Below, piece after piece: positions 28,587 to 45,116 of a stretch of 64,000 bases of DNA; position 1 is the stretch's first letter, and every line of letters starts with the position of its first letter. Under the pieces are notes generated by a model. It saw nothing but the letters and a program-made list of their open reading frames with translations. It searched no databases and was not told where the DNA came from. The position numbers and the translations under genes are program-made. This stretch comes from an uncultured Leptospirales bacterium (GTDB lineage Bacteria; Spirochaetota; UBA4802; UBA5550), in contig CAZYBU010000005.1 in NCBI GenBank assembly GCA_964645775.1, positions 13,339-77,338 of the forward strand. Reading direction: 5' to 3'.

Positions 28587-28866
28587 AGTTTTTGTTTGAA
28601 GCTTTTTTCTTATGCGATTACAATCATATGTTTCTTTCCCCGGATTAAAATGGTATCCTCCAGGTGAATTTCAGAAATCTTTCGTATCTACGGTACTTAT
28701 CCCTGAGCTTCTTTCCCAATTCTACAATCTATTATTCTCCTGTGCAAAACACTTTTTCAGCTACAGCGGTCTTTACCATAATTTATGATTGAATAAATAC
28801 CTGATCCTTTCTGTAATGGAAGCCGTAAAGTTTTATAAAGTGATCAGTTTTGACGGTTTTTATAGA

Positions 28867-30438
28867 ATGAATAGAAAATGTGATATTCAGAACCTGCTTA
28901 TTATAGATGAGACACCCCTCGCCCTGGAAGATGTTGTCGATGTCGCAAGAGGTAACTGTGAAATCGAGTTAAGCCGTAATGAGCGATTCCTCGGTATTCT
29001 GGAAAATTCCCGTCGTAAACTCCTTGATGCGATGGAGAAGGGTGTCCCGGTATATGGCGTAACCACAGGATACGGCAAGTCCTGCGGCAAGAGATTGGAC
29101 TCTTCCCTTGCCCTTATCAATGGGAAAAACCTTGTCCGTTTTCATGGTTGCGGTACCGGTGAGGTCTTGGGCAGGATTGAATCCCGCGCTGTCCTTATCT
29201 GCCGAATCGCTTCTCTTGTACAGGGGTACTCTGGAGTGAGCCATGGTCTCCTTCAGGCCCTCGTCGATCTTTTACGAAAGGATGTCGTACCTGTTATCCC
29301 TTCGGAAGGTTCCGTTGGCGCATCCGGAGACCTGACGCCCATGTCCTATGTGGCGGCGGTCCTTTCCGGGGAACGTGAGGTCTTTTTTCGGGGCGGACGA
29401 ATGTCGGCCGATCGTGCCCTTAAAGAGGCGGGTCTGACCCCCTATGAACTGAGGTCCAAGGAGGCCCTGGCCATCATGAACGGTACCACGGTTATGACCG
29501 GCCTCGCGGCCCTGGCTGCCTGGCGTGCCGGCAATCTTCTTGACAGCGTTGTACGGGCTACGGCCCTTTCGGTCCATGCCGTGCAGGGGAACAGGCGGCA
29601 CTTTCATCCCACGATCTCCCGGTCCCGGCCTTATGGCGGTCAGATACGTGTTTCCGACATGTTGAACAGGTTTCTCGACTCCAGTACTTCGGAAAGTCAA
29701 CTGGAGTCCCCGGCCCCGGAAGCCCTTCAGGACCCTTATTCCCTAAGGTGCTCTCCCCAGATCGCGGGTGTTCTTGGCGATACCCTGACTTGGGTCTGTC
29801 AATGGATCGAAATAGAGATTAATAGCGCTAATGATAATCCTTTGGTCGATCCCGATACGGGTGAAATCCTCATGGGAGGCAATTTCTACGGTGGCCATAT
29901 CTCCCAGGCCATGGATTCACTGAAGAGCAGTATTGCTTCTGTAGCGGATATGAGTGACCGGCAGGTTGCCCTTCTGGTCAACCCGAACGTAAACCGGGGC
30001 CTGCCGGCAGACCTGGTTGCCGAAAAGAAAGATGACTCCACCCATCACGGTTTTAAGGCTCTCTCCATCGCGGCTTCGGCATTGACGGCTGAGGCATTGA
30101 AAAACACCATGCCGGCCGCTTCCTTCTCCCGCTCCACGGAGTCCCACAATCAGGACAAGGTGAGCATGGGGACCATCGCGGCCCGGGACACTATGCGTAT
30201 TCTGGAACTGACGGCCAGGGTCGCCTCTATTCATATACTCACGGCTGTTCAGGCCGTTGAACTGCGGGGGAACTGCCACGAACGTCCTGAAATTGAAAGG
30301 ATGGTCCGGGAAGTACGGGCTGTAAGTGAACCGGTTCTCGAAGATCGGCCCCTGGACAGTGATATTGAAGAGGTGGCCCGGCGTATACTCGACAACAGAC
30401 TTTTCGGGATGGATAATGACCAGGAGACCAATAGTTAG
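28867..30438 (+). CDS. MIO-dependent aromatic amino-acid ammonia-lyase (HAL/PAL/TAL family)
   Basis: The MIO-forming triad is in GSVGASGDLTPMSY, and the family N-terminus is L.IDETPLALEDVVDVARG. The start is uncertain (ATG 28867, or TTG 28789 per the track). Confidence 0.85.
   Translation: MNRKCDIQNLLIIDETPLALEDVVDVARGNCEIELSRNERFLGILENSRRKLLDAMEKGVPVYGVTTGYGKSCGKRLDSSLALINGKNLVRFHGCGTGEVLGRIESRAVLICRIASLVQGYSGVSHGLLQALVDLLRKDVVPVIPSEGSVGASGDLTPMSYVAAVLSGEREVFFRGGRMSADRALKEAGLTPYELRSKEALAIMNGTTVMTGLAALAAWRAGNLLDSVVRATALSVHAVQGNRRHFHPTISRSRPYGGQIRVSDMLNRFLDSSTSESQLESPAPEALQDPYSLRCSPQIAGVLGDTLTWVCQWIEIEINSANDNPLVDPDTGEILMGGNFYGGHISQAMDSLKSSIASVADMSDRQVALLVNPNVNRGLPADLVAEKKDDSTHHGFKALSIAASALTAEALKNTMPAASFSRSTESHNQDKVSMGTIAARDTMRILELTARVASIHILTAVQAVELRGNCHERPEIERMVREVRAVSEPVLEDRPLDSDIEEVARRILDNRLFGMDNDQETNS
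29430..29440. repeat. GGGTCWGACCC palindrome copy (W=T)
   Basis: Exact 11-mer in the ammonia-lyase gene, decoded G-L-T. Confidence 0.95.
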
Positions 30439-30850
30439 CCACAGCATTGAGATGCAGGTCCCCTTTTATGATCTGGATCCCATGCAGATAGTCTGGCACG
30501 GAAATTACCTCAAGTACTTTGACCGGGCCCGGGCCGCTCTTTTCAGTCATATTAACGTGGATCTCTATGATATTTATAACGAAACGGAGTATCTCTTCCC
30601 CATTATCCGTTCCTCGGTTAAGCATATTACGCCTTTAATGTATAACGATCGTATCCTTTGCACGGCCCATTTGATGCAGGTGGATTACAAGATAGTCTTT
30701 GATTTTGAGCTCAGGCGGCTTAAAGATGATAGGGTCTGCGCAAAAGGGAGAAGTGAACAGGTGGCTATTCGAAACATGGATGGTGAAATGCTTTTTCGGA
30801 TACCCGGGTCTGTCCGGGAAAGAATACTTAATGCAGGAGAAGTCTCATGA
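30416..30850 (+). CDS. Hot-dog fold acyl thioesterase (4HBT/YbgC type; ApeK-like)
   Basis: VPFYDLDPMQIVWHGNYLKYF motif. The start could also be ATG 30452. Confidence 0.75.
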   Translation: MTRRPIVSHSIEMQVPFYDLDPMQIVWHGNYLKYFDRARAALFSHINVDLYDIYNETEYLFPIIRSSVKHITPLMYNDRILCTAHLMQVDYKIVFDFELRRLKDDRVCAKGRSEQVAIRNMDGEMLFRIPGSVRERILNAGEVS

Positions 30851-32589
30851 TAACCATGAACCGAAGCGGTATCATTTCCGGAGTGGAAAGGGTTGCCGCA
30901 TGGAAAGACCTTTTGAATGATATTAATGTCTTCCCTGTCGCCGACGGTGACACGGGAGTTAATCTTGTTACAAGCCTCTCTCCCCTTCGGCTTCTGGAGG
31001 TTGAGGCTGACGACGTCATCGACAGGATGCTGATCGCGGCCCGTGGGAACTCAGGTAACATCGCCACCCTCTTTTTTTCCGGATTCCTTGAAACCTGGCC
31101 CGTGGAGAACTATCCCCTCGCGCTTGAGGCGGGAAGGGATAGGGCCTATCGGGCCGTTTCGAGCCCGGTTCCCGGTACAATGTTGTCATTCTTTGATGAT
31201 CTCTGCGATAGTTTCAGCGAGCACAGGCCCGATATTAACCAGGGCGCGGAAGGAAAGGTTATAGCCGACCTCGTGGAGAGCGTTAAGAACACCACATCCC
31301 GGCTTCCCGCTCTTCAGGACGCGGGTGTGATTGATGCCGGCGCCCTGGGAATGTTCATCTTTTTCGAGACCTTTTTCCTCTCACTGGCCGGAAAAGAGGA
31401 AGGGTATGTCTCTATCCTTGATGAATTCAGTGAGGGTCTGACCCTCAAGGCAGGATACCGGGCTGAATCGGAAATGGGCTTCTGTGTAGATCTAGTACTT
31501 GAAGCAGGAGAGAATACATCTGACCTTGAAGAAAAAGTAAGCGCTCTGGGAGAGAGTGGTATCGTTATTCGGGAGAAGGACAGGGTGAAGGTCCATCTTC
31601 ATTCCGATGACCTGGAGAGTGTGCGGCGGGACATGGAGTCCCTGGGTACAATCGTCAACTGGTCCGTGGATGACATTGATGCACAGGTTCGGTCCTTCGG
31701 AAGAAACCAGACAGGCCGGATCCATATCGTCACCGATGCGGCTGGGTCCCTGACCATGGATCAGTCCCGTTCCCTGGGTTTGACTCTCCTGAATAGCTAT
31801 CTAAATATAGGAGACACCTCCAAACCGGAGACCTACTTCGATCCCGCTGAACTTTATCGGGCAATGGATCGAGGTATTCCCGTATCTACATCCCAGGCCT
31901 CAATCTTTGAAAGGCATCACTTTTACAGCAGTCTGTGCGAACGGTTTGAACAGGTCCTCTATCTTTCCGTCGGTTCCGTGTTTACAGGCAATTATCAGAC
32001 GGCTCTGGAGTGGAAAGAGAAGAACGATACCGGGGATACCTTCCGTGTTATCGATTCTACGGCGGCATCGGGACGTCTTGCCGTCTTTTCCCTTGCCGTT
32101 CAGCGGTTCGCGGCCGGGGACACTTCCCTGGACGAAGTTGAACAATACGCCCTTGATATCCGGGATCATTGCTCGGAGTATCTCTTCCTGAATCAGCTGA
32201 AGTTCCTCGCGGCCGGAGGGCGGCTTTCAAAAGGCAGTGCCTTTTTCGGCGATATGCTCAGAATGAAACCGGTCATCTCTCCCCTGGCGGAGGGAGCTAA
32301 GAAAATAGACGTTGTCCATACCTTTGAGCAGCAGGTGGATTACGCCCTGGACCGTGTTAGTAAAGAGCTTCCCCTCACTTCCCGTCCCCTGGTTCTTCTG
32401 GAGTATTCGGACAACAAAGAGACAGTGGAGGGTCTCATTTATGATAAGATTTCCCGCCTTCTCCCCCAGGCAGAGATTTTAACCGGCCCACTGTCATTGA
32501 CTTCCGGAGCCCATATGGGTCCCGGCACCTGGGGGATCGCATGGGTGCCGGAGGAATGCCTCCCGGAAGCACGCAGAGGAAGAGAATAA
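30847..32589 (+). CDS. DAK2-domain / DegV-domain fusion protein (single-chain fatty-acid-kinase-like)
   Basis: The N-terminal DAK2 motifs are FPVADGDTGVN and AARGNSGN. The C-terminal ~280 aa are DegV-like (IHIVTDAAGSL, STSQAS, LAAGGRLSKG, LRMKPVIS). The ATGA overlap with the thioesterase stop indicates coupling. Confidence 0.8.
   Translation: MITMNRSGIISGVERVAAWKDLLNDINVFPVADGDTGVNLVTSLSPLRLLEVEADDVIDRMLIAARGNSGNIATLFFSGFLETWPVENYPLALEAGRDRAYRAVSSPVPGTMLSFFDDLCDSFSEHRPDINQGAEGKVIADLVESVKNTTSRLPALQDAGVIDAGALGMFIFFETFFLSLAGKEEGYVSILDEFSEGLTLKAGYRAESEMGFCVDLVLEAGENTSDLEEKVSALGESGIVIREKDRVKVHLHSDDLESVRRDMESLGTIVNWSVDDIDAQVRSFGRNQTGRIHIVTDAAGSLTMDQSRSLGLTLLNSYLNIGDTSKPETYFDPAELYRAMDRGIPVSTSQASIFERHHFYSSLCERFEQVLYLSVGSVFTGNYQTALEWKEKNDTGDTFRVIDSTAASGRLAVFSLAVQRFAAGDTSLDEVEQYALDIRDHCSEYLFLNQLKFLAAGGRLSKGSAFFGDMLRMKPVISPLAEGAKKIDVVHTFEQQVDYALDRVSKELPLTSRPLVLLEYSDNKETVEGLIYDKISRLLPQAEILTGPLSLTSGAHMGPGTWGIAWVPEECLPEARRGRE
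31434..31444. repeat. GGGTCWGACCC palindrome copy (W=T)
   Basis: Exact 11-mer in the DAK2-DegV gene, decoded G-L-T. Extends to the 15-bp palindrome GAGGGTCTGACCCTC. Confidence 0.95.
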
Positions 32590-33809
32590 TGAGAAGGGTC
32601 GTAATAACAGGTGTGGGAGTTCGTTCGCCCCTGGGTCACACAGGGGACACACTTTTTGACGCCATTCTTGACAACCGTTCCGGTATCCGCGCCATGCCTG
32701 AATGGAAGAGTATAGATCACCTGAACTGCCATGTGGCGGGTTCCTGCGAGGATATCGATGAGAAAGCTATCCCCAGGAACCACAGAAGGACCATGGGGCG
32801 TGTCGCTGTCCTGGCCGGCCTCTCGGCCATGGACGCTGTCCGGGACGCCGGTCTTTCCGACGAGGAGGTTTCTTCCCCCGGTTGCGGCGTCTCTTACGGT
32901 TCCACGGAGGGGAGCAGCAGCGTCCTGGAGGAGTTCCTTTCTAAAATACTCAGCGACTACAGCCTCAAGGGCCTTGCCTCCTCTACGTACCTTAAATTCA
33001 TGAGCCATACCTGCGCGGCCAATATTGCCGGTATGTTCCAGAGCCGGGGACCGGTTATCGCCTCCTGTACCGCCTGTGTGGCCGGTTCCCAGGGAATCGG
33101 TTTCGGATATGAGGCTATCCGGGAGGGAAGGGCCGATGTCATGATAACCGGGGGCGCGGAAGAGCTCCACTTTGTCCACGCAGGCGTTTTCGATGTCATG
33201 AGGGCCACTTCCACAGGCTACAACGGCCGGCCGGAGGAGACGCCCCGTCCCTTTGACCGGGATCGGGACGGGCTGGTTGTCTCCGAGGGGAGCGGCTGCC
33301 TTATTTTGGAAGAGTACGAACGGGCCCGGTCCCGGGGTGCGAAAATTTACGGTGAGGTCCGGGGATACGGGACCAATTGCGACGGCTTTCACCTGACCCG
33401 TCCCAGCAGCGAGGGGATGTCCGGAGTCATGAAGAAGGCCCTGGCGGACGCTTCCCTGAACCCTGAAGATATTGGTCACATCAACGCCCACGCAACGGCC
33501 ACAGAGGCGGGAGACGTGGCGGAATCGGAAGCGGTCCATTCCCTCTTCGGTGACAGGGTCCCTGTTACCGCCTTCAAGGGATACCTGGGCCATTCCCTGG
33601 GTGCCTGCGGCGCCATAGAATCGATCATCTCTCTCTGGATACTGGCCCGGGGAGTGATTCCCCCGTCCCGTAACCTCTCCACTCCTGATCCGGAGTGCGC
33701 TCCCGTAGCTCACGTGAGAGAGATTATTGAAGAGAAACCTTTGCTTGTCATGAATAATAACTTTGCCTTCGGGGGTATAAATACCTCTCTGATCTTTTCT
33801 ACTCTATAG
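32589..33809 (+). CDS. Beta-ketoacyl-ACP synthase (FabB/F-like; ApeR-like)
   Basis: VVITGVGVRSPLG N-terminus, active-site SCTACVAGSQ, the H...H pair (FHLTRP, NAHATAT) and NNNFAFGGINTSLIF. TAATG overlap with the upstream gene. Confidence 0.85.
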   Translation: MRRVVITGVGVRSPLGHTGDTLFDAILDNRSGIRAMPEWKSIDHLNCHVAGSCEDIDEKAIPRNHRRTMGRVAVLAGLSAMDAVRDAGLSDEEVSSPGCGVSYGSTEGSSSVLEEFLSKILSDYSLKGLASSTYLKFMSHTCAANIAGMFQSRGPVIASCTACVAGSQGIGFGYEAIREGRADVMITGGAEELHFVHAGVFDVMRATSTGYNGRPEETPRPFDRDRDGLVVSEGSGCLILEEYERARSRGAKIYGEVRGYGTNCDGFHLTRPSSEGMSGVMKKALADASLNPEDIGHINAHATATEAGDVAESEAVHSLFGDRVPVTAFKGYLGHSLGACGAIESIISLWILARGVIPPSRNLSTPDPECAPVAHVREIIEEKPLLVMNNNFAFGGINTSLIFSTL

Positions 33810-33823
33810 GCGCCGTCTCTTTT

Positions 33824-34552
33824 ATGAAATCACCTTCCATAACAGTTCTCATCCCGGTCTATAACCACGGGAGCCGTATCGCCGGGGTTGTGCAGGATGT
33901 CATGGCTAAGGGATACGATCTTCTCGTGGTGGACGACGGTTCCACGGACTCCACCCGTGAAAAAGTGGAGAATATACCCGGAGTACCTCTGCTTATCCAT
34001 GATGAGAACCGGGGTAAAGGCGCGGCTCTGATGACAGGCTTTCGTGCTCTGAAAGATGGTTGCAGATGGGTTCTTACCATAGATGGGGACGGTCAGCACA
34101 GCGTGGATGACATAGAAGTCTTTATCCGGGAAATAGAGAGAGATCCCGAACCGAGGATTATATGCGGATATCGTCAGGGTATGGACGCGGAAGATGTCCC
34201 CTGGACCAGCAGCTTCGGTCGTAAGTTCTCCAATTTCTGGGTCCGTCTTTCCGGCGGGCCTCCCATCCGGGACAGCCAGAGCGGATTGAGGCTCTATCCC
34301 CTTCCGGAGAGCGCTGAACTGAACGTTAAGAGCAAACGGTATCAGTTCGAGATTGAGGTTCTTGTCCTGGCCCGCTTGAAGGGTATTCCGGTTACGGAAG
34401 TTCCTGTTCAGGTTAGCTACCAGGAGGGTGAGAGGATATCCCATTTCAAACCCTGGACCGATTTTTGGAGAAACGCCGCCACCTTCGCGCGCCTTATCAC
34501 AATGAGAATACTGCTATTCCTTCCCCTCAGACGGAGGATATCCTTCCTGTAA
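33824..34552 (+). CDS. Family-2 glycosyltransferase (ApeJ-like)
   Basis: ITVLIPVYNH...LLVVDDGSTDST and a later DGDGQH motif. Confidence 0.8.
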   Translation: MKSPSITVLIPVYNHGSRIAGVVQDVMAKGYDLLVVDDGSTDSTREKVENIPGVPLLIHDENRGKGAALMTGFRALKDGCRWVLTIDGDGQHSVDDIEVFIREIERDPEPRIICGYRQGMDAEDVPWTSSFGRKFSNFWVRLSGGPPIRDSQSGLRLYPLPESAELNVKSKRYQFEIEVLVLARLKGIPVTEVPVQVSYQEGERISHFKPWTDFWRNAATFARLITMRILLFLPLRRRISFL

Positions 34553-34562
34553 AGGAACCGCT

Positions 34563-37500
34563 TTGATCATGACGAGGAGAAAAAGAGTATTTTTATTGTC
34601 GATCATTATGGCCGTTCTGGCCGGGGCTCTTCTCCTGGTCCTTACCAGGTTGCAGGTAGAGAGCAATCTTATCTCCTCCCTGCCCGGTAATGATCCGGTT
34701 CTGAAACATTCCAGGGAGATTTTCCAGGCCAATCCCATACAGAATGTTGCCCTTGTAAGCCTGACCCTTACAGGCTCTGACCCCGGTATCCTGCACGACG
34801 CTGCTGAGGAAGTTAAGGAGAAGATGTACGGCAGCGGTCTCTTTCGTTCCGTGGGCGTGGAAGAGATGGGCGAGAGTTTCACGGAGATGCTTTTTTATAC
34901 CGCCAGGAATCTTCCCATCCTTTTTAGCGAGGAGGAACTGAAGAAGGCCAAACCGAATCTTGAGAAGGAAAAGGTGAGGCTTCGAGTCCGTGAGATTTAC
35001 CGGGAACTGACCGGTTTCGGCGGCATCGGTCAGGGTGAACTGATTTCCAGGGACCCGCTTCAGCTCCGGCACCTTCAGTTAAAAAAGATGGCCGGTCTCC
35101 TGCCCGTCGGAGATGTCCGGTACAGGGAAGGTAACCTTGTTTCATCCGACGGTCGGCATCTTCTTGTCATTGCCCGGACCTCCCCTGAGAAGGGAGAACC
35201 ACTGGAAGTCGACTCGTTCCTGAACGATCTAAAGAACGACCTGGAAAGAAAATATGACATCCTTGTTCATCACGCCGGGGCTTACAGGGCATCCGCTGAT
35301 AATGAGTCCATGATACGTGCCGATGTCCGGAGGGCGGTCATGATCGCCACTGTCTGCATTATACTTCTTCTGGTTTTTTCCTTTCCCAGACCCTGGATCG
35401 GTCTCCTGGCCCTTCTCCCCGCGCTGAGCGGTATCCTGCTGGCCATGGCCATCTTCGCTCTTTTCGGTATTCCCCTCTCCCTCATTGCCATCGGATTTGG
35501 AGGCGCCATCGTATCCATTTCCGTCGATCATGGCGTGGCTTATATCCTTTTTCTGGACCGCCCCTATCGGACCGAGGGGAAGAGAGTGGCCCGCTACGTT
35601 CGTAATCTGGGGCTCCTTGCCGTTATTACGAGTGTGGGCGCCTTCTTTTTTCTGGGGGTAAGCGGATTTCGAGTCTTCTCTCAGATCGGACAGTTCGCGG
35701 CCCTGGGGATTCTTTTCTCGTTTATTTCACTTCACCTGTTCTTTCCGGTACTGGTCCCCTCCCTTCCCCCTGCGAAGCGCTCCAGAAGCGTCCTTCTCCA
35801 GAGATTGACACTCCACATCGATCTGAAGAGGCTTTTTCCCCTGCTGGCGGGTCTGACCCTCATCTTTGCTTCAGTGATCCTCTTCAGGCCCCCGCATTTT
35901 GCGGCTGACATACGATCGATGAACTCCCTCCGTCCTGATACCCTTAAGGCGGAAGAGGCGATACAGGAGACCTGGGGTGACTGGGGAAGGAGCGGATACC
36001 TCATGATCCGGGCGGAGGATACCCTGATCCTGAGGGAAAAGAACGACAGGATCCATGATATTGCCTGTCAGGTTGGGGTCAGACCCGCTCTTCTCACCAC
36101 GGATTTCTTCCCTTCCATGGATGTCCGCCGGAAAAACCTCGCCTCCTGGAAGGAATTCTGGAACAGGGAAAGAAGGGAAGAACTACGCAGAACTTTCAGC
36201 CGGGCCGCCCGGGAAGAAGGATTACGGGCTTCGGTTTTTGAACCTTTCTTCGAAAAACTGAAAGACCCGGAGATAAAGGAGATCCGCATTGACGATGAAA
36301 TGCTCGATCTCTTCGGAGTCCGCAAAGAGGGTGATGGACTGGTCCAGTATGTGCCGGTCCAGGCCGAATCGAAGGAGAAGGCCTTTGAGTTTTTTAACGG
36401 AATTTCGAAAATGGAGGGGGTCCGGTACTATGATCCCGGTCTCTTTACGGAACGGCTTTCCCGATCTCTGGCCAGGGGATTTTTCCTCGTTCTGGGTCTG
36501 GTGGCCGCGGGCGTAACGATATTTCTTTTTTTCTATTTCCTGGATATTCGTCTTCTCCTTCTCTCCCTGGCCCCTGTCTTTTTTGCACTCCTTGCTACCA
36601 TGGCGATTCTCTCCCTTACGGGAGGAAGGCTCGGTCTGCCGGCTCTGATGCTATCCGTGGTGATATTCGGCATGGGGATCGATTATTCCCTGTATTATAT
36701 CCGCTCCTTCCAGTTTTCCGGGAGCGAAAGGGAGGAGACACTGGGATTAATACGGTTGACCATACTGGTGGCAGGCGCCTCCACCTTTTTCGGTTTCGCT
36801 TCCCTCTCTTTTTCCAGCCACGCCCTTCTTGAGAACGCGGGGATCGTCACCGGGCTCGGCATCGCGGGAACCCTGGTTTCAACTCTTATCATTGTTCCCT
36901 GGGGACTGGAAAAGATCGAGTCCTCGCGCAATCATAAAAGTATCGATACCGTGGAGCCAGGTTCCCGTAAACACAGAACCCTTACCCTGAAACGGTATTC
37001 CGGCCTTGAGGCCGGTGTGCGTCTCTTCGCGCGTTTCAAGATGATCCTTGATCCGATGTTTCCGCGACTTCTCGATTTTATCGGAGACGGGAGGGTCATC
37101 CTCGATATTGGCTGCGGCTATGGTGTCCCATCCAGCTGGCTTATGACCGTGATGCCGGAAATTCGTGTATATGGAATCGATCCGGATGACATGAGAGTCC
37201 GGGCAGCGAGCCGGGCCTGGGAGGGCAGGGGAGTGGCGCGCGTGGGTTCAGCTCCCTCTCTTCCAGAGGAAGGAGGCAGGGCAGACACGATCCTCCTTGT
37301 CGATGTTATTCATTATCTTGATGATGAGGAGTGTTCCCGGCTTTTCGAGAACTGCGCCCGGAGGCTTCATGGAGGAGGACGCGTCGTTATTCGCGTCACG
37401 GTGCCGCTGGAAGGGAAAAGGACTTTCTTCCGGTTCATGGAAGACCTGGCCGGAAAACCGACCGTGTTTCGTTCAGTGGCTCATATAACAAGGATGGCTT

Positions 37501-37595
37501 CAGAAAAAAACCTTTCTGTTTGTCACACGGAACCGACGGCCTCGGGCAGGGAAGAGACATGGATTATCCTCTATCGGCGCAGGGAAGGAGAATGA
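34563..37595 (+). CDS. MMPL/RND-type exporter fused to a C-terminal SAM-dependent methyltransferase (ApeM + ApeB-like)
   Basis: About 800 aa with two clusters of 5-6 TM helices separated by soluble loops. This is followed by VILDIGCGYGVPSSW (SAM motif I) and ILLVDVIHYLDDEE. Confidence 0.75.
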   Translation: MIMTRRKRVFLLSIIMAVLAGALLLVLTRLQVESNLISSLPGNDPVLKHSREIFQANPIQNVALVSLTLTGSDPGILHDAAEEVKEKMYGSGLFRSVGVEEMGESFTEMLFYTARNLPILFSEEELKKAKPNLEKEKVRLRVREIYRELTGFGGIGQGELISRDPLQLRHLQLKKMAGLLPVGDVRYREGNLVSSDGRHLLVIARTSPEKGEPLEVDSFLNDLKNDLERKYDILVHHAGAYRASADNESMIRADVRRAVMIATVCIILLLVFSFPRPWIGLLALLPALSGILLAMAIFALFGIPLSLIAIGFGGAIVSISVDHGVAYILFLDRPYRTEGKRVARYVRNLGLLAVITSVGAFFFLGVSGFRVFSQIGQFAALGILFSFISLHLFFPVLVPSLPPAKRSRSVLLQRLTLHIDLKRLFPLLAGLTLIFASVILFRPPHFAADIRSMNSLRPDTLKAEEAIQETWGDWGRSGYLMIRAEDTLILREKNDRIHDIACQVGVRPALLTTDFFPSMDVRRKNLASWKEFWNRERREELRRTFSRAAREEGLRASVFEPFFEKLKDPEIKEIRIDDEMLDLFGVRKEGDGLVQYVPVQAESKEKAFEFFNGISKMEGVRYYDPGLFTERLSRSLARGFFLVLGLVAAGVTIFLFFYFLDIRLLLLSLAPVFFALLATMAILSLTGGRLGLPALMLSVVIFGMGIDYSLYYIRSFQFSGSEREETLGLIRLTILVAGASTFFGFASLSFSSHALLENAGIVTGLGIAGTLVSTLIIVPWGLEKIESSRNHKSIDTVEPGSRKHRTLTLKRYSGLEAGVRLFARFKMILDPMFPRLLDFIGDGRVILDIGCGYGVPSSWLMTVMPEIRVYGIDPDDMRVRAASRAWEGRGVARVGSAPSLPEEGGRADTILLVDVIHYLDDEECSRLFENCARRLHGGGRVVIRVTVPLEGKRTFFRFMEDLAGKPTVFRSVAHITRMASEKNLSVCHTEPTASGREETWIILYRRREGE
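35849..35859. repeat. GGGTCWGACCC palindrome copy (W=T)
   Basis: Exact 11-mer in the MMPL gene, decoded G-L-T. Confidence 0.95.
36076..36086. repeat. GGGTCWGACCC palindrome copy (W=A)
   Basis: Exact 11-mer in the MMPL gene, decoded G-V-R-P. Confidence 0.95.
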
Positions 37596-38461
37596 GAATA
37601 GCCTTTTATACTATCCTGGTCTTCCTCTCCAGGTTCCTGGGTACATGGATACTGGATGCGGGCATCCTCGTGGTAACAGCCGGGTTCTTTATCTTATTCC
37701 CGGGACGAGTCAAAAACAGCATCCGTTTTTTTCAGAGAGTTGAACCGGACCGCTCCTTTTTGCATTATCTCTCCCTGGCCTGGAAACAGTTTCAGGCCTT
37801 CTCTTCCATTTTCAAGAACCGGATCGTACTGGAGAAGGGTGAGGTATCGTGGGAGAGCGAAGGCATGGAATACCTTCAACATGCGTTGGAGGAAGGGAAA
37901 GGGGCTATCCTTCTGATGTCCCATTACGGAAACTGGGAGATGGCCGCCCATCTGCTCCGAAACCAGGTGGAGGGTCTGACCCTCTTCATGGGAGAGAAGA
38001 AAGACGAGAAACTTGAAAGGCCTCAGAAGGAACACCTTGGGAAGAACAGGGTCGAGGTTGTTGCCGTACCGGAAATGGAGAACAATCCTTTTCAGCTTAT
38101 CGACGCCCTTACGGTCCTGAAGAGAGGCGAGATTCTTTCCCTGACGGGAGACCGGCTCCGGGGAGAGGATGACCGAAGTCTGACGGTCGACTTCCTGGGA
38201 GGTAAAATCAAGGTACCTGAAGGTCCTCATCTCCTGGCCCGGCTGAGCGGGGCCCCTCTTCTTGTTTTTTTTGCAAGGATCCGGGAGGATGGAGGATTGT
38301 ATTTCCGGTTTTACCGGCCCTGTCACGTGCCAAACTCGGGAAAAAAGGAGAGGGAAAAGGTCATTCGAGAATCAGCCCTGCGATACGTGGAACTGCTGGA
38401 GGAGCAGGTACGGGAATCACCATGGAACTGGTTTCATTTTGAGAATGTTTTTATCGATTGA
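37592..38461 (+). CDS. LpxL/HtrB-type lysophospholipid/lipid A acyltransferase (ApeD-like)
   Basis: N-terminal TM segment and the MSHYGNWE catalytic motif. ATGA overlap with the exporter stop. Confidence 0.7.
   Translation: MRIAFYTILVFLSRFLGTWILDAGILVVTAGFFILFPGRVKNSIRFFQRVEPDRSFLHYLSLAWKQFQAFSSIFKNRIVLEKGEVSWESEGMEYLQHALEEGKGAILLMSHYGNWEMAAHLLRNQVEGLTLFMGEKKDEKLERPQKEHLGKNRVEVVAVPEMENNPFQLIDALTVLKRGEILSLTGDRLRGEDDRSLTVDFLGGKIKVPEGPHLLARLSGAPLLVFFARIREDGGLYFRFYRPCHVPNSGKKEREKVIRESALRYVELLEEQVRESPWNWFHFENVFID
37972..37982. repeat. GGGTCWGACCC palindrome copy (W=T)
   Basis: Exact 11-mer in the LpxL-type acyltransferase gene, decoded G-L-T. Extends to the 15-bp palindrome GAGGGTCTGACCCTC. Confidence 0.95.
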
Positions 38462-38651
38462 CCGGCTGTCCGCGCTTTTACTTCGGAATGTGCTTGAATT
38501 CATACCCCGCTGTGAAAAAATTGTAACAGACCTGTTTCCATGGTTGTCCCTCTGTCATCAGACGTCACAGACAAGGGGTATCCGTTCGTCATGACCTGGA
38601 ACAGAGTAAAGGACAACCCGGGGAACGGAGGCCGTGCAAGGAGCATAAAGT

Positions 38652-38894
38652 ATGAAAACATCGGAAATATTTGACAAGATAAAAGATTTTTTCATGGAAG
38701 AATTCGAGATCGAAGAGGAACTGATCACTATGGATGCGGGTCTTTTCACGGACCTGGGGCTGGACAGTATTGACGCCCTGGACATGGTGGGTATGCTCGA
38801 ATCTAATTATGATATTGAAGTGAAAGAGAACGAAATTAAAAATATACGCACAATTCGAGACGTGGTACAATTTATATCCGGAAAGGTTGCATGA
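38652..38894 (+). CDS. Acyl carrier protein
   Basis: 80 aa with the phosphopantetheine site LGLDSIDALDMV. Confidence 0.85.
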   Translation: MKTSEIFDKIKDFFMEEFEIEEELITMDAGLFTDLGLDSIDALDMVGMLESNYDIEVKENEIKNIRTIRDVVQFISGKVA

Positions 38895-39238
38895 GCACAG
38901 ACAGGGGATACGCGTTGACGAATCTCTCAAGGCAGGATGGGTCGTTGCGGGCCCGGGTCGATATCCCGGCCCATTCTTTCTGGTTTGACGGTCACTTCCC
39001 GGGGGAACCCATACTCCCCGGGGTAGCGCAGATCATGATGGTACGGGATGTCATACTGGCCGGTTTCTCGCCTCCAGGTGAGTCCTTTTCTCTGAAACGG
39101 ATTAAGTTCAACCGGATTGTCCAGCCTGATGCCTGCCTGGATGTTCTGGTGGAGAAGAAGAGAGATTCCATGTATTCCTTCTCGCTTGCTACGGAAGGTG
39201 AGACCGTCTCGAGCGGGTTCATGGAGTTTGACCTGTGA
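38891..39238 (+). CDS. Hot-dog fold dehydratase (FabA/FabZ-like; ApeI-like)
   Basis: FDGHFPGEPILPGVAQIMM motif. ATGA overlap with the ACP stop. Confidence 0.7.
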   Translation: MSTDRGYALTNLSRQDGSLRARVDIPAHSFWFDGHFPGEPILPGVAQIMMVRDVILAGFSPPGESFSLKRIKFNRIVQPDACLDVLVEKKRDSMYSFSLATEGETVSSGFMEFDL

Positions 39239-39813
39239 TTACGGCCGCTGTCTCTCTGGCCGCATACCTCGCCGGGTCCATTAATGTATCGATTATCCTT
39301 TTTCGTATACTGGGATGGAAGGATCCCAGGGAGGCCTTCAGCGGAAATCCCGGGGTCACTAATGTCTACCGTATCAAGGGACCGGTATTTGCGGGTATAA
39401 TCCTGCTTCTGGACCTGGGCCGCTCTTTCCTTGTGGCATGGGGGGCGTCCCTTTTTCTTCCCCTTCACCTTGTTCCGGCGGCCGGCCTGGCCCTTATGAT
39501 CGGTAACCGTTATCCCTGCTTCCACGGTTTCAGGGGAGGGAAAGGCGTCTCGGCCTTTATAGGGTTTACTCTTTACGCCCATCCTCTCTTCGCGGCCGCT
39601 TCCATGGCGCTCTGGGTTATGATCTACGGTATTATACGTATACCCTTTATCGCTTCCTTCGGTATGTCCCTGGCCCTCATGACCGGTCTTTTCCTTTACG
39701 TGGCGATGGACCCAGTGGGGGTGCTCCTGGCCTTTCACATGCTTGTGCTTGTGGTAATGAATCACAGAGGAAACATCCTCGCCCTCATTAACCGGAGAAG
39801 CGAAGAAGCATGA
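39235..39813 (+). CDS. plsY: PlsY-family acyl-phosphate:glycerol-3-phosphate acyltransferase paralog
   Basis: AAYLAGSIN, SGNPGVTNVYR and FRGGKGVSAFIG motifs. The conserved His of the G-H-x-F-P motif reads Asn here (IGNRYPCF). GTGA overlap with the dehydratase stop. Confidence 0.75.
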   Translation: MITAAVSLAAYLAGSINVSIILFRILGWKDPREAFSGNPGVTNVYRIKGPVFAGIILLLDLGRSFLVAWGASLFLPLHLVPAAGLALMIGNRYPCFHGFRGGKGVSAFIGFTLYAHPLFAAASMALWVMIYGIIRIPFIASFGMSLALMTGLFLYVAMDPVGVLLAFHMLVLVVMNHRGNILALINRRSEEA

Positions 39814-39816
39814 TTG

Positions 39817-40728
39817 TCATTCTCCCTTCAGATCCTGTTCTCCTGTCACTATCTCTATCCCCTTCAGGGTCCGTTTAAGAAGCCCGGAGAGAACACGGCC
39901 CGGTCCGCACTCGATAAAGGTTCTCCCTCCTTCCGCGTAAGCCCGGATGACCGTTTTTTCCCACTGTACCGGGCTGTGGAGCTGTAGAATCAGCTTCTCC
40001 CGGATCTTTTCCGGGTCCTCCTCCGGTTCACCTGTTACGTTATCGATGAAAAGGGTAGCCGGCTGTTTGAACGTGTACCCTTTCAAAAAGATCCCGAATT
40101 CCCCGGCCACAGGTTCCATGATCGTGGAATGAAAAGGAGCGGAGACCTTCAGCTCCCGGCCGATTCCCAGTTTGTCACGGTTTATCCTCTCTTCAATTTC
40201 CCGGATCGCTTCCCTTCGACCGGTAAGGACGAACTGGTCAGGGGAATTGTAATTAGCCACCTCCAGAATTCCGGGGCCGTATTCTTCCGTGATGATATTG
40301 AGAACGGCTTCAAGGTTTCCCCTCAAAACAGCCAGCATTCCGCCCGGTCTCTTCTCCGAAGCCCCTGCCATGAGCTCTCCCCGCTTTCGGACAATGTTCA
40401 GGCCGTCTTCCAGGTCGAGAACGCCGGCCTGGACAAGAGCGGTATACTCGCCCAGGGAATGGCCCGCCACGATGGCCGGGGGACCGTGTTTCGCTTCTGC
40501 TCTCCGTCCGTAAAGAAAACCCATAAGAAGAAGGGCTGGCTGTGTGTTCTCCGTTCGGATAAGCTCCTCCTCAGGCCCCTTCTCCATGAGGTCTGTCAAC
40601 CCGGTTCCCAGAACCTCATCCGCCATGGCGAGGATACCTTTCTCGTTCTCCGAGAGGGGAGCCGCCGTCGAAATCATTCCGACATACTGAGATCCCTGGC
40701 CGGGAAAAATATTCACTGTCCCTTTCAT
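39817..40728 (-). CDS. fabD: Malonyl-CoA:ACP transacylase
   Basis: FPGQGSQYVGM and the GHSLGEY active-site serine motif. Confidence 0.9.
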   Translation of the reverse strand: MKGTVNIFPGQGSQYVGMISTAAPLSENEKGILAMADEVLGTGLTDLMEKGPEEELIRTENTQPALLLMGFLYGRRAEAKHGPPAIVAGHSLGEYTALVQAGVLDLEDGLNIVRKRGELMAGASEKRPGGMLAVLRGNLEAVLNIITEEYGPGILEVANYNSPDQFVLTGRREAIREIEERINRDKLGIGRELKVSAPFHSTIMEPVAGEFGIFLKGYTFKQPATLFIDNVTGEPEEDPEKIREKLILQLHSPVQWEKTVIRAYAEGGRTFIECGPGRVLSGLLKRTLKGIEIVTGEQDLKGE

Positions 40729-40736
40729 GCGCTACC

Positions 40737-42086
40737 TCATTCCGATTCTTTCAGGATTTCCAACACTCTCTTCCGGTCAATCTTTCCCGTGGCGAGGAGG
40801 GGAAACTGCTCCACGATACGTATCCTCCGTATATGGGGACCGGCCATAAGGGTTCGGTTTATCCGGCCACGCGCTTCAGTCAGGCTGAGCTTTGACTGGA
40901 TTACGCAGGCTGGTTCATTATCTTCCCTGTTATGCGTTCTTATTATGGCCGCGTGGCACTCTTCGATGCCGTCGATTCCGCGGATCTTCTCTTCCAGCTC
41001 AGCGAGGTCTATCCTCCTGCCGGCAACCTTGACAATGGAATCGGACCTGCCGAGAAGGCGGAACTGTCCGGGAGAAGCCGTAATCGCCTCCACCCTGTCA
41101 TTGCTGGTAAAGAAACCCTCGCTGTCTGCCGGCAGGTCCGGGGAGAGGAAGGGGGACCGGACACTGAGTCTCTCGTCCTGGATATGCAAGTCGATGAGAT
41201 CAAAGGCCCTGAAGACCTCGTCTCCCGGGTGCTGGACCCTCCAGGCGATACCGCCGGTCTCCGTGGAACCGAATATCTCGGTAACCGGAACCCCGGTCGC
41301 CTCATAAAAGGCCCGGGATTCTCCCTCCGGCAGAGGTGCGGCCGATGAGAGGGCCAGGCGGAGCGAGGGCATTACCGGATTCGAACGGTTCAACAGTCGG
41401 TAAATCGATGGGGTGGCCACGAGTACGTTCCCTTTCTTCTCCCGGCCGGCCCGGATGATTTCCCCCGGGAAGATCAGAACCTCACCGGCCACGGGACACC
41501 CTCCCAGAAGGGGGAGGAAGACCGTGAAAAGAAGACCGTAGATATGATAGGGTGGAACGGATGGTATTATAATGTCGTCAGGAGAGACTCCGAGAAAGGA
41601 TACCTGGAAAAGGATTTCAGTCAGTATATTGGCCGGTGTTTTGCTCCAGATCCGGGCCGTGCCTGTTGAGCCTCCCGTGAAAAGATTGAGAAAACGTCTG
41701 TCAGGATCGATTCTTCCCGGGGTATTCCCGGCAACCTCTTCCTTAAATGGCTGAATCAGGGTCAGACCCTCCAGAGGTATGCTCTCCCGGTCAGTAACCA
41801 CAATTCTCTTCCCTGTGAAGGAAAAGGCCTCCTCCAGAATTTCCGGTGTCATGGAATGGGGAAGTATAATCTCCGCTTCTCCGGCCATGGAGGCGACCAG
41901 GACGGCGGCCATGAGTTCCTTCGACTCCGTGTAGAGGCAGATCCGGTCTTTCCCGTAAGGGGCCAGGAGTTCTCCTGTCCGCACCGCAAGTTCCCTGATC
42001 TGGCCCCGGGTTGCGCCTCCCTGGATAAAGGGCGACTGTTCCGGGTACTCACCGAAAAGGGCGTCAACTGTTACTGGCAGGTTCAT
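40737..42086 (-). CDS. AMP-dependent synthetase/ligase (aryl-acid activating; ApeH-like)
   Basis: FTGGSTGTARIW (P-loop-like) and FGSTETGGIAWR motifs. ATG 42086 preferred, whereas the track start is 42152. Confidence 0.7.
   Translation of the reverse strand: MNLPVTVDALFGEYPEQSPFIQGGATRGQIRELAVRTGELLAPYGKDRICLYTESKELMAAVLVASMAGEAEIILPHSMTPEILEEAFSFTGKRIVVTDRESIPLEGLTLIQPFKEEVAGNTPGRIDPDRRFLNLFTGGSTGTARIWSKTPANILTEILFQVSFLGVSPDDIIIPSVPPYHIYGLLFTVFLPLLGGCPVAGEVLIFPGEIIRAGREKKGNVLVATPSIYRLLNRSNPVMPSLRLALSSAAPLPEGESRAFYEATGVPVTEIFGSTETGGIAWRVQHPGDEVFRAFDLIDLHIQDERLSVRSPFLSPDLPADSEGFFTSNDRVEAITASPGQFRLLGRSDSIVKVAGRRIDLAELEEKIRGIDGIEECHAAIIRTHNREDNEPACVIQSKLSLTEARGRINRTLMAGPHIRRIRIVEQFPLLATGKIDRKRVLEILKESE
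41759..41769. repeat. GGGTCWGACCC palindrome copy (W=A)
   Basis: Exact 11-mer in the AMP-ligase gene, decoded G-L-T. Confidence 0.95.
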
Positions 42087-42864
42087 TCTTTTCCTTCTGC
42101 CGTTCTGACCGGTATTCTTCAAGTATCTTCTTGCTTTTTTCCGCCAGTTCATCAGGGGATGATCTTTTGTTTCCCTGCCCGGGATTCAATGTCTCCACGT
42201 ATTCAAGTTCTATTCGGCGGGGCCGGCAGAGTGTTAAGAAAAAGGTGCCGGGAGAAAAGACCTCGCCGCTTCCTGAGATGTGGAGAATGTGGATGGGCAC
42301 GCCCGATCTTCTGGCAAGCTTGAAGGCGCCCTCATTGAATGGGGCGATGCTGCCGTCCCTGCTCCGCGTCCCCTCGGGGAAGATAAAAAGGATTCCTCCC
42401 TCCTGGAAGAACCTGTCCAGGCTTTCCACGCTTTTCCGCACGCTCTTTTTCATCATGCCGTCCATGCGTGAGGGAATATAACCGGAGCCGTGTATAAGGG
42501 TTCCGAAAAAAGGGACCCGGAAAAAGTCGTGACGGGAGATGGTTTTCTGTTTTTTAAAGAGAGAGAGAAGCAGGATCGGGTCCAGGTAGGAGAGATGATT
42601 ACATACGACGACGGAGGAGTCGAGCCTCCGGATTTTTTCGTCGATACTGATCTCCACCCTGGATATCGCCTGCAGGAGCGCGAAAAAGATATGGAAGAAG
42701 CGATGGTTAAGTCCCTGGAACAGCTTCTCTCTCCGGGAAAACCGGAACCAGGACACGAGATAAAAAGGAAAGAAGAGAATAAGGAACCCGAAAAGGAAGA
42801 AGCCCCAGATTAAAAGGGTGCCGAAACGGTTATGCAGATTGCAGAGGAGTCCTCTTCGTTCCAA
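42064..42864 (-). CDS. plsC: PlsC-type 1-acyl-sn-glycerol-3-phosphate acyltransferase
   Basis: N-terminal TM segments, an HX4D motif in VVCNHLSYLDP, and FPEGTRSRDG. Confidence 0.8.
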   Translation of the reverse strand: MERRGLLCNLHNRFGTLLIWGFFLFGFLILFFPFYLVSWFRFSRREKLFQGLNHRFFHIFFALLQAISRVEISIDEKIRRLDSSVVVCNHLSYLDPILLLSLFKKQKTISRHDFFRVPFFGTLIHGSGYIPSRMDGMMKKSVRKSVESLDRFFQEGGILFIFPEGTRSRDGSIAPFNEGAFKLARRSGVPIHILHISGSGEVFSPGTFFLTLCRPRRIELEYVETLNPGQGNKRSSPDELAEKSKKILEEYRSERQKEKNEPASNS

Positions 42865-42874
42865 TCATTTCTCC

Positions 42875-43492
42875 TTACCGGGTTTCCGGGATGTCCGGTT
42901 TCGTGAAGAGTGTGTCTTTCAGTGAGACGTTCAGTTCGACCGAAGAGAACCGGATGGTAGTTCCGCTCCCTTCCTTCTCCATGATCATGATACCTGAGAT
43001 TATTCCTTTCCTGGGAGAGAGTGTGAGAAGAATCTTCTCAATAAAACGCCTGACCCGGGGTGAGGAGGCCCTGAGTGTGATAGTATCTCCTTCCAGGCTC
43101 GCCTGGAAATGGGGGTTCTCCCGGAAGTTTCCCTTCATCCACTCCAGGACATCGGAAAGGACACGTTCGATTCCATGGTGTGAAGTCGATTCTACGGGAA
43201 GGAATTCTCCATCCTGCTCCCTGAAATGCGTAAGCCTTCCTTCACTGAGAATGAGTACCTCCCTGACCGGGGAAAGGTATTCCCAGCGCAGGGAACCGGG
43301 ACTCCGGTAATAGAAGGTTCCCTTCATGATCACGTCCCGGCTTAAGAGGGGAGATTTTCTGATCTGGACAAAGCGCGCCCGGATAGATGAGATCGATGAG
43401 GTGGATTCCCGAATGCTCTCCCAGCTTTCCCGCCAGGCCTGAAGGGGTAGTGCGGACAGCAGACATATAACTACGATAATGGATTTTTTCAT
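42875..43492 (-). CDS. LolA-like lipoprotein-carrier-fold protein (ApeL-like)
   Basis: Signal peptide, then ARFVQIRKSPLLSRDVIMKGTFYYRSPGSLRWEY, which resembles the LolA signature. Confidence 0.65.
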   Translation of the reverse strand: MKKSIIVVICLLSALPLQAWRESWESIRESTSSISSIRARFVQIRKSPLLSRDVIMKGTFYYRSPGSLRWEYLSPVREVLILSEGRLTHFREQDGEFLPVESTSHHGIERVLSDVLEWMKGNFRENPHFQASLEGDTITLRASSPRVRRFIEKILLTLSPRKGIISGIMIMEKEGSGTTIRFSSVELNVSLKDTLFTKPDIPETR

Positions 43493-43496
43493 GGGG

Positions 43497-44228
43497 TCAG
43501 AGCATCCCGCCGTTTACGGAGATTGTCTGGCCGGTTATGTAGGATGCCTGTTCCGATGCCAGGAAAAGGGCCGCCCTGGCGACCTCCTCCGGTTGGCCGA
43601 TTCGACCCATGGGTATCATCTTCCTGATTTCATCAACCGGCGCGTCGGCTATCATCTCCGTGTCTATAAGGCCGGGGGCGATGACGTTCACCCGGATACC
43701 CAGGCGGGCCACTTCCGTGGCTACCGACCGGCTCGCTCCGATCAGCCCTGCCTTGGCCGCAGAATAGTTGGCCTGGCCCCGGTTCCCGGTCAGTCCCGAA
43801 ATAGAAGAGATGGTTATTATGGAACCCCTTTTTCTCCGTATCATACCCTTGAGGACCGGCCGGGTACAGTTATAGAATCCCCTGAGTGAAACGTTTATGA
43901 CCCGGTCCCACTCTTCGCCCGGCATCATGGCGAAAAGACCGTCCGCCGAAACTCCGGCGTTGTTTACCAGCAGGTCGAGGGAGTCCCGGTCCGAATGGAT
44001 TTTTTCCACGGACCTGCCTGCCGCTTCTTCGTCGGTCACGTCAAAGGGAAGCAGTTCCCCCTCACCTCCGGCTGATTTGATCAGTTCAAGGGTCTTTTCG
44101 GCTTCCGCCTGGTTGGATCGAAAGTTGACATAGACGTGATACCCATTAGCAGCCAGTTCCAGGGTGATAGCCCGGCCGATACCCCTGCTCCCCCCGGTTA
44201 CAAGCGCGCTTTTCCTTTCGTTACTCAT
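43497..44228 (-). CDS. fabG: 3-oxoacyl-ACP reductase (FabG-like; ApeQ-like)
   Basis: VTGGSRGIGRAI, NNAG, YSAAKAG, and the C-terminal GQTISVNGG. Confidence 0.9.
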   Translation of the reverse strand: MSNERKSALVTGGSRGIGRAITLELAANGYHVYVNFRSNQAEAEKTLELIKSAGGEGELLPFDVTDEEAAGRSVEKIHSDRDSLDLLVNNAGVSADGLFAMMPGEEWDRVINVSLRGFYNCTRPVLKGMIRRKRGSIITISSISGLTGNRGQANYSAAKAGLIGASRSVATEVARLGIRVNVIAPGLIDTEMIADAPVDEIRKMIPMGRIGQPEEVARAALFLASEQASYITGQTISVNGGML

Positions 44229-44246
44229 GACTGACTCCTTACCTTT

Positions 44247-44681: not shown

Positions 44682-44731
44682 AGTATTTCATTTTCTCACG
44701 AAAAGGCTGTGTCAAATCATTTTTTGTTGAC

Positions 44732-45106: not shown

Positions 45107-45116
45107 AACCGGTCCC

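Follow-up and report, generated by a model that had tools for sequence, protein, structure and literature searches.

Aryl polyene (APE) clusters are among the most widespread biosynthetic clusters of bacteria, and the assembly of their lipid anchor still stands only as a model. Their core gene set comprises a ketosynthase (KS; ApeO/R), a chain-length factor (CLF; ApeC), an acyl carrier protein (ACP; ApeE/F), a dehydratase (DH; ApeI/P), a ketoreductase (KR; ApeQ) and a transporter (ApeM) (Grammbitter et al.). In Xenorhabdus, the aryl polyene lipid (APEL) is a glycerophospholipid with a glycerol-phosphate-N-acetylgalactosamine (GalNAc) backbone: the aryl polyene is esterified to the sugar, and the glycerol carries, next to a plain C14/C16 chain, a conjugated C26:5 chain that ApeD attaches after its proposed synthesis on ApeF. 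Published models suggest that the thioesterase ApeK releases the APE acid, and neither the published E. coli gene table nor the Xenorhabdus APEL model includes a fatty acid kinase (Fak) or PlsY step. Here we describe an ape-like cluster within a 64,000-nucleotide stretch of contig CAZYBU010000005.1 from an uncultured Leptospirales bacterium (hereafter the window), in which a single-chain Fak-like fusion gene lies directly behind an ApeK-like thioesterase gene and a PlsY-family acyltransferase is encoded further downstream. The evidence from this cluster suggests an acyl-phosphate route to the lipid anchor, and we give an even chance to the proposal that the lipid-anchor branch of the cluster has acquired such a route as a dedicated one.

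The E. coli CFT073 ape cluster was fetched by coordinates and its proteins were compared with those of the window by BLASTP. Thirteen genes of the window cluster match CFT073 ape genes one-to-one: ApeC, ApeD, ApeE, ApeF, ApeH, ApeI, ApeJ (split), ApeK, ApeM, ApeO, ApeP, ApeQ and ApeR. These include the core set, with ApeO/R, ApeC, ApeE/F, ApeI/P, ApeQ and a weak match to ApeM (BLASTP and Pfam), as well as the lipid-attachment genes, namely the ApeD LPLAT, the glycosyltransferase (GT) and acyltransferase halves of ApeJ and the ApeK thioesterase. Judged by this gene content, the region from 28.8 to 48.1 kb of the window is a Thermodesulfobacteriota-type APEL cluster. In common with the ape clusters of E. 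coli and Xenorhabdus doucetiae, it has two ACPs, a KS/CLF pair, an LPLAT, a family 2 GT (GT2) with an LpxL-like acyltransferase, and an RND/LolA export arm, the likeness of the LolA-like protein being one of Pfam domain only. Unlike in E. coli, ApeJ is split into the GT2 and the LpxL-like protein, which flank the transporter, and two fusions join ApeB to ApeM and ApeO to ApeC. Genes for the Fak-like fusion, PlsY, FabD, an aromatic amino-acid ammonia-lyase (TAL) and a deacetylase are extra, and BLASTP found no counterpart of any of them in the CFT073 ape cluster. No counterpart of ApeA, ApeG or ApeN was found in the window cluster by BLASTP, and a blastn search of E. coli genomes with the KS gene returned no match.

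A first-pass annotation, made from the DNA alone, had held that a Fak/PlsY step was undescribed for APE clusters, which agrees with the comparison above and with the literature searched: we found no paper linking aryl polyenes with DegV, PlsY, fatty acid kinase or DAK2, and nothing relevant for PlsY combined with radical S-adenosylmethionine (SAM), ketosynthase and gene cluster. It had also presented the anchoring of the pigment to a glycerolipid as new; this part falls, because the Xenorhabdus APEL is already a glycerophospholipid, and the new part would be how the glycerol gets acylated. Flexirubin-type clusters of Bacteroidota start their aryl polyene from a TAL and a 4-coumarate-ligase-type enzyme, as the window cluster appears to do, and we know of no Fak or PlsY step described for them. 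In the window, the ammonia-lyase probably supplies a hydroxycinnamate starter.

The 580-residue fusion protein carries three domains in one chain, which Pfam identifies as Dak2 (50.7 bits, above the cut-off), FakA-like_M (43.6 bits) and DegV (136.8 bits, profile positions 2-280 of 280). The first-pass annotation had read it as a DAK2 domain joined to DegV; both domains are there, but a FakA middle domain stands between them. NCBIfam YloV/FakA models cover residues 9-287 only, and DegV/FakB1 models residues 292-569; FakA_C, the FakB-docking domain, is missing, and the full DegV domain (residues 292-569) takes its place. The motifs DGDTG, ARGNSG, TSQAS, GGRLS and MKPV lie at residues 33, 65, 348, 457 and 473, respectively. 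An alignment of 21 homologs (~50% identity) showed the residues of each active site to be invariant: N27/D33/D35/T36/N68/D163, which correspond to the Mg/ADP ligands N32/D38/D40/T41/N82/D185 of S. aureus FakA; C213/H250/H252, which correspond to its essential C240/H282/H284; the TSQAS serines; R459 (in GGRLS), the equivalent of the FakB catalytic Arg173 (FakB1 R173); and H556, which lies in HMGPG. A sequence search of the PDB with the fusion returned S. suis FakA, S. aureus FakA_N (E = 2e-18) and many DegV/FakB proteins. The fusion was also modelled with AlphaFold2 (AF2) from the 21 homologs, giving a predicted local distance difference test score (pLDDT) of 86 and a predicted template-modelling score (pTM) of 0.89. 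In Foldseek comparisons, the C half of this model reached template-modelling (TM) scores of 0.82-0.86 to fatty-acid-loaded FakB1/DegV structures over their full length, with the DegV half superposing well on palmitate-loaded FakB1, and the N domain reached a TM score of 0.75 to FakA_N.

Like the two-component FakA/FakB of Firmicutes (S. aureus, S. suis), the fusion therefore combines a FakA_N ATP/Mg site, a Cys-His-His set in the middle domain and a FakB fold with the Ser/His that bind the carboxyl group and the catalytic Arg. It departs from that two-component organization in being one chain, in which a FakB-like domain replaces FakA_C, and in being found inside a biosynthetic cluster of Gram-negative anaerobes, whereas FakA/FakB of Firmicutes serve the scavenging of host or exogenous fatty acids. 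FakA_NL alone is an active kinase, with a Km for FakB that is 11-fold higher, and FakA_C serves FakB binding (Subramanian et al.); FakA_C has no fatty-acid tunnel. Because FakA_NL is active by itself and FakA_C only docks FakB, joining FakA_NL to FakB in one chain would make a mechanistically coherent kinase, which is a sensible reading of the fusion. It seems very unlikely that the fusion is not a kinase in vivo and acts instead as a lipid-binding chaperone or sensor for a hydrophobic product: PMC10138225 attributes regulatory or other non-Fak roles to some DegV proteins, but the Mg/ATP ligands, the Cys-His-His set and the FakB catalytic Arg are all invariant among the 21 homologs. The idea that the fusion architecture itself is new was rejected, as Dak2-DegV fusions had already been noted by Erni 2006, as cited in a later paper.

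A protein search with the fusion yielded 3072 matches; all 120 among the matches listed have the three-domain architecture, and they come from Syntrophales, Smithellaceae, Desulfobacterales and related metagenome-assembled genomes (MAGs). When one genome per GTDB species was scanned, fusion relatives were found in at least 572 species, belonging to Thermodesulfobacteriota, Spirochaetota/Leptospirales and a few Myxococcota-labelled MAGs. Eighty fusion loci from these species were retained and searched with the window cluster proteins using tblastn. At least two hallmark cluster genes lie beside the fusion in 71 of the 80 loci. Of these loci, 76 extend far enough to show the preceding gene, and in 49 of them this is a same-strand gene for an ApeK-like thioesterase; the GT2 gene is the next gene downstream in 42, and an LpxL-like gene and a TAL gene are present in 48/80 and 34/80 loci, respectively. 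Separate look-ups of related loci show the same block. Because this neighbourhood is conserved at 40-50% protein identity, comparison of the loci rules out that the fusion came to lie in the cluster by chance.

The upstream border of the thioesterase-kinase pair varies among relatives. A gene for a B12-binding radical SAM enzyme lies directly upstream of the pair in many of them (L001, L004, L013, L050, L099 and others); it replaces TAL in some loci (e.g., L004), and both are present in 25/80 loci. This pattern suggests head-group or chain-modification variants of the cluster.

The PlsY homolog of the cluster scores 110.6 bits against Pfam G3P_acyltransf (cut-off 24.1) and 98.8 bits against the PlsY equivalog model TIGR00023, below its cut-off of 137.2. 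It aligns over its full length to Aquifex aeolicus PlsY (5XJ5) at 35% identity and keeps motif 1 (SGNxGxTN), the GGKG loop, HRxN and the clamp for glycerol-3-phosphate (G3P). It differs from the Aquifex enzyme in having Asn for His92, in its sub-equivalog score and in its setting in a cluster resembling those of polyketide synthases (PKS) and fatty acid synthases (FAS). Residues were counted in the 120 best homologs, in Aquifex numbering. All six G3P-pocket residues (S35, R45, K104, N180, S142 and H177), which make up the clamp and the 2-OH ligands, and T41 are kept in the cluster PlsY; among the 120 clade members, S35, R45, S142, H177 and N180 never vary, Arg takes the place of K104 in 4 (Lys in the other 116), and the backbone motifs of the carbonyl and phosphate holes are intact. 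His92 is replaced by Asn in the cluster PlsY (residue N91 of the protein) and in 119/120 clade members. According to the PlsY structure paper, the acyl-phosphate is touched by no side chains other than those of His92 and Thr41, and among 7,288 homologs position 92 is occupied by His in 97.8% and by Asn in 0.5%. The cluster PlsY is therefore part of a separate clade, whose acceptor site is intact and whose donor site is modified.

Look-ups and a metagenome scan with tblastn place the Asn92 PlsY genes in specialised KS/ACP/thioesterase clusters. Neighbourhoods were counted over 37 metagenome loci of at least 7 kb, and a strongly conserved module lies beside the Asn92 PlsY gene, usually ahead of it, in 25-26 of them. 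This module consists of a radical SAM enzyme, two KS whose identity across samples is 64-85%, a thioesterase of the 4HBT type and a fusion of a PKS-dehydratase with a phosphopantetheinyl transferase (PPTase), and is seen in loci that include L096, L101, L105, L106, L111, L116, L118, L120, L126, L136, L144 and L156, and also L010, L011 and L013. It was looked for in the window and is not present there; it may resemble ladderane-type FAS clusters. A deacetylase gene co-occurs with the Asn92 PlsY gene in 14/37 metagenome loci, and an ApeI-like dehydratase and the B12-binding radical SAM enzyme are often present too.

A PlsY gene lies within 10 kb of the fusion in 5/80 genome loci; among the 37 metagenome loci with PlsY, 5 have a fusion gene equally close. 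By our own estimate, two unrelated single-copy genes in a genome of ~4 Mb would be expected to fall within 10 kb of each other in ~0.5% of cases. The two genes adjoin in rearranged layouts in L050, L053, L071, L098, L099, L104 and L113: they are divergent or convergent neighbours in L050, L053 and L098, L071 has PlsY, thioesterase and kinase on one strand, and L099 and L104 share the order kinase-GT2-MMPL-LpxL-PlsC-PlsY. That these layouts differ argues for selection on the proximity of PlsY and the fusion, and both have the same unusual taxonomic range. As read from these loci, the link between kinase and PlsY is real, although the two genes need not be neighbours. The notion of PlsY as a constant part of the fusion cluster was rejected, being true in only 5/80 loci.

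The window also encodes a PlsB-like G3P acyltransferase, 10 kb downstream of the cluster and separated from it by unrelated genes; the protein reaches 406 bits (E = 2e-121) with PRK04974, a model whose equivalog cut-off is 610. Enzymes of the PlsB type are most familiar from Gammaproteobacteria. No second PlsY was found within the window. These data bear on the possibility that the kinase, PlsY and PlsC genes are simply the organism's housekeeping fak/plsY/plsC set placed here by chance, an outcome that the first-pass annotation had itself named as fatal to its proposal. We consider this exceedingly improbable, as synteny with the cluster type is kept in at least 71 species loci whose proteins are 40-50% identical, the clade of the PlsY is marked by a diagnostic His92Asn change and a score below the equivalog cut-off, a PlsB-like enzyme is at hand in the same window, and the PlsC-type protein is the counterpart of ApeD.

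The arrangement of genes within the cluster points to the chain that might be phosphorylated. The thioesterase stop and fusion start share ATGA, the fusion stop and KS start share TAATG, and the ACP/DH and DH/PlsY gene pairs each overlap by 4 bases, so that the translational coupling of thioesterase, fusion and KS, and of ACP, dehydratase and PlsY, is found as first described. PlsY is thereby coupled to ACP1, which is of the ApeF type, and to the ApeI-like dehydratase, whereas the ApeE-type ACP (ACP2) sits with the KS-CLF. Because PlsY is coupled to ACP1 and the solved APEL has its aryl polyene on the sugar, we favour a second, non-aryl chain: the kinase substrate is more likely an ApeF-type acyl chain than the finished aryl polyene. 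The latter was the substrate proposed by the first-pass annotation, and nothing shows it to be so. In that scheme the thioesterase would free the finished aryl-polyene acid, the fusion would phosphorylate it and PlsY would put it on G3P. The conserved coupling of thioesterase and kinase fits this order of events, as do the TAL gene just upstream, in the window and in 34/80 loci, and the published suggestion that ApeK releases the APE acid. We nevertheless regard it as unlikely, given that the only solved APE lipid bears the APE on the sugar and not on glycerol, that the window cluster encodes an ApeJ-C-like sugar acyltransferase, that the ACP coupled to PlsY is the ApeF-like one instead of the ApeE-like one beside the KS-CLF, and that ApeK did not hydrolyze ACP-bound APE in vitro.

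Alternatively, the fusion may convert an ordinary saturated fatty acid, of housekeeping or exogenous origin, to its acyl-phosphate for a plain chain at sn-1, with the PKS products entering only through ACP-dependent acyltransferases. One glycerol chain of the Xenorhabdus APELs is a plain C14/C16 chain, all characterised Fak systems act on common fatty acids, and the DegV half superposes well on FakB1 loaded with palmitate. Such a scheme, however, leaves unexplained both the coupling of the kinase gene to the thioesterase gene of the cluster and the existence of a separate PlsY clade inside KS/ACP/thioesterase modules, and we hold it to be improbable.

We therefore return to a second, PKS-derived chain as the favoured substrate and infer every enzymatic step, substrate and the step order as follows. 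The ApeK-like thioesterase would free an ACP-bound product as the acid, most likely the chain on the ApeF-like ACP1 and not the aryl polyene. The DegV/FakB-like half would bind this acid, and the tethered FakA_N/M half would use ATP to turn it into an acyl-phosphate. Apart from PlsY and PlsX, no enzyme is known to consume acyl-phosphate. The Asn92-type PlsY would move the acyl group to sn-1 of G3P, after which the ApeD-like PlsC would acylate sn-2 and the GT2 (ApeJ N-half) would add a sugar. The LpxL/PatA-like enzyme (ApeJ C-half) would then transfer the aryl polyene from ACP2, the ApeE-like carrier, to the sugar in ester linkage, and MMPL and LolA would export the finished APEL-like lipid. 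That the fusion and the His92Asn PlsY together form a dedicated assembly line, putting a thioesterase-released, PKS-derived chain on G3P, is a possibility that we put forward tentatively.

Several observations weigh against this scheme. Xenorhabdus ApeK showed no hydrolysis of ACP-bound APE intermediates in vitro, which leaves release by the thioesterase unproven. The H92N mutant of Aquifex PlsY has ~7% of wild-type activity, and the Asn92 clade may use a different acyl donor or have a site that compensates for the change. In 75/80 loci, PlsY is not within 10 kb of the fusion, so that either the gene for its partner lies elsewhere or the acyl-phosphate goes to a different end. Finally, a PlsB-like enzyme is encoded in the window, and the cluster PlsY is therefore not the sole candidate for acylating G3P; with it, the argument that acyl-phosphate is the only way to G3P acylation falls.

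The same data invite a reading in which the acyl-phosphate or the bound acid has another fate, such as PlsX-type reloading onto an ACP or use by the LpxL-like or another acyltransferase, or in which the Asn92 PlsY takes another donor, e.g., an acyl-adenylate from the AMP-ligase. PlsY is missing near most fusion genes, of which the GT2 and LpxL-like genes are constant neighbours; the sole side chain changed in the PlsY clade is a contact of the donor phosphate; and the trio of PlsY, FabD and AMP-ligase genes recurs, being found in L011 with the latter two likewise on the minus strand. We think such a fate decidedly unlikely, as no PlsX was seen in any cluster examined and PlsY retains the backbone motifs of both its carbonyl hole and its phosphate hole. 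Nor do we know of any LpxL- or GT2-family enzyme that uses acyl-phosphate. The dedicated acyl-phosphate route put forward by the first-pass annotation thus stands as plausible and is strengthened by comparative genomics, while its choice of substrate, the constancy of PlsY and the novelty of the anchoring find no support.

Gene calls were taken from the identical public contig CAXDPQ010000027.1 of MAG GCA_963991465.1, and domains were assigned by Pfam and NCBIfam scans of the window open reading frames (ORFs). Together with the ORF listing, these define one contiguous cluster at ~28816-48050 of the window (Table 1). Its span is wider than the interval given at first, in which the genes are real but the FabD-like gene and the second ACP went unmentioned. 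All genes, motifs and positions that had been named were recovered by Pfam and a motif check, including the PlsC-type acyltransferase, which has both the HX4D motif (NHLSYLD at residue 89) and the (F/Y)PEGTR motif (FPEGTRS at residue 162) and whose gene overlaps that of the AMP-ligase. An LpxL-type acyltransferase and a GT2 are present as described, but the gene call starts the former at 37592 and not at 37331; its top NCBIfam match is a phosphatidylinositol mannoside (PIM) acyltransferase model. The fusion of the MMPL transporter to a methyltransferase was also seen when relatives were looked up, and BLASTP gave 36% identity to ApeO for the N half of the KS-CLF and 29% to ApeC for its C half.

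Table 1. Genes of the APEL-type cluster and the PlsB-like gene, with positions in the window and the evidence for each assignment.
Feature	Position	Strand	Evidence and remarks
TAL/PAL-type aromatic amino-acid ammonia-lyase	28816..30438	+	Pfam Lyase_aromatic E = 4e-153; no E. coli ape counterpart
Hot-dog (4HBT) thioesterase, ApeK homolog	30416..30850	+	Pfam 4HBT_2/4HBT; ApeK 30% identity, E = 3e-23
Single-chain fatty-acid-kinase-like fusion, 580 aa	30847..32589	+	FakA_N (Dak2) + FakA middle domain + full DegV; no FakA_C
Ketosynthase (KS1), ApeR homolog	32589..33809	+	Pfam ketoacyl-synt; ApeR 43% identity, E = 2e-114
GT2 glycosyltransferase, ApeJ N-terminal half	33824..34552	+	Pfam Glycos_transf_2; 33% identity to ApeJ residues 6-231
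MMPL/RND transporter (ApeM-like) fused to SAM methyltransferase	34569..37595	+	Pfam MMPL + Methyltransf_25/11; weak ApeM match
LpxL/PatA-like acyltransferase, ApeJ C-terminal half	37592..38461	+	Pfam Lip_A_acyltrans; 24% identity to ApeJ residues 264-545
ACP1, ApeF-like	38652..38894	+	Pfam PP-binding; ApeF 37% identity, E = 3e-14, vs ApeE E = 2e-4
ApeI-like dehydratase	38891..39238	+	Pfam FabA; Pfam ApeI-like below cut-off; ApeI 30% identity
PlsY-family acyltransferase, His92-to-Asn clade	39235..39813	+	Pfam G3P_acyltransf E = 1e-31
FabD-like malonyl-CoA:ACP transacylase	39817..40728	-	Pfam Acyl_transf_1; TIGR00128 257.8 bits vs cut-off 260.9
AMP-forming ligase, ApeH-like and 4-coumarate-ligase-like	40737..42086	-	Pfam AMP-binding; ApeH 31% identity; TIGR02372 93.9 bits, below cut-off
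PlsC/LPLAT-type acyltransferase, ApeD-like	42064..42864	-	Pfam Acyltransferase 85 bits; ApeD 25% identity, E = 4e-14
LolA-like carrier, ApeL-type role	42875..43492	-	Pfam LolA E = 4e-14
Ketoreductase, ApeQ homolog	43497..44228	-	Pfam adh_short; ApeQ 48% identity
ApeP-like dehydratase	44247..44681	-	Pfam FabA; weak ApeP match (23% identity), E = 8e-6
ACP2, ApeE-like, directly upstream of KS-CLF	44843..45106	+	Pfam PP-binding; ApeE 40% identity
Fused ketosynthase and chain-length factor (ApeO + ApeC)	45117..47231	+	Pfam ketoacyl-synt, Ketoacyl-synt_C, Ketoacyl-synt_2
Polysaccharide deacetylase (carbohydrate esterase 4-type), final cluster gene	47241..48050	+	Pfam Polysacc_deac_1 E = 1e-34
PlsB-like glycerol-3-phosphate acyltransferase, 869 aa	57959-60568	+	Pfam GPAT_C + Acyltransferase

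The flanks of the cluster are unrelated to it, with an alanine racemase and an IS200-type transposase upstream and sulfur-transport genes downstream. The IS200-type (Y1_Tnp) transposase gene is at 26094-26684 (+), just upstream of the cluster, and at the matching place L008, which is this organism's ENA assembly, carries an IS21-type element (rve + IstB) instead (compared with L007), which indicates that the insertion-sequence content at the cluster border varies between strains. Elsewhere in the window, at 12088-15355, genes for a sulfotransferase (12088-13557, +), a short-chain dehydrogenase/reductase (SDR; 13582-14481, +) and a protein with a lysyl-phosphatidylglycerol synthase C-terminal domain (14507-15355, -) adjoin; this group may be another lipid-modification locus.

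A fatty-acid kinase encoded right after a thioesterase offers a concrete, testable answer to what ApeK does and how the released acid is re-activated. The fusion is in effect a natural FakA_NL-FakB experiment that supports the published domain model of FakA, and the PlsY subfamily is defined by a change at the one side chain, besides Thr41, that touches the donor phosphate. If the proposed route is true, specialised lipid biosynthesis would for the first time be seen to draw on Fak/PlsY chemistry, Fak systems, known so far for the scavenging of exogenous fatty acids by Firmicutes, would also serve dedicated biosynthesis by Gram-negative anaerobes, and the ApeK-type thioesterase would gain a function, in a pathway widespread among anaerobic Thermodesulfobacteriota and Spirochaetota. 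With the fusion present in the genomes of at least 572 species, any lipid that results from it could be abundant in anoxic sediments and digesters.

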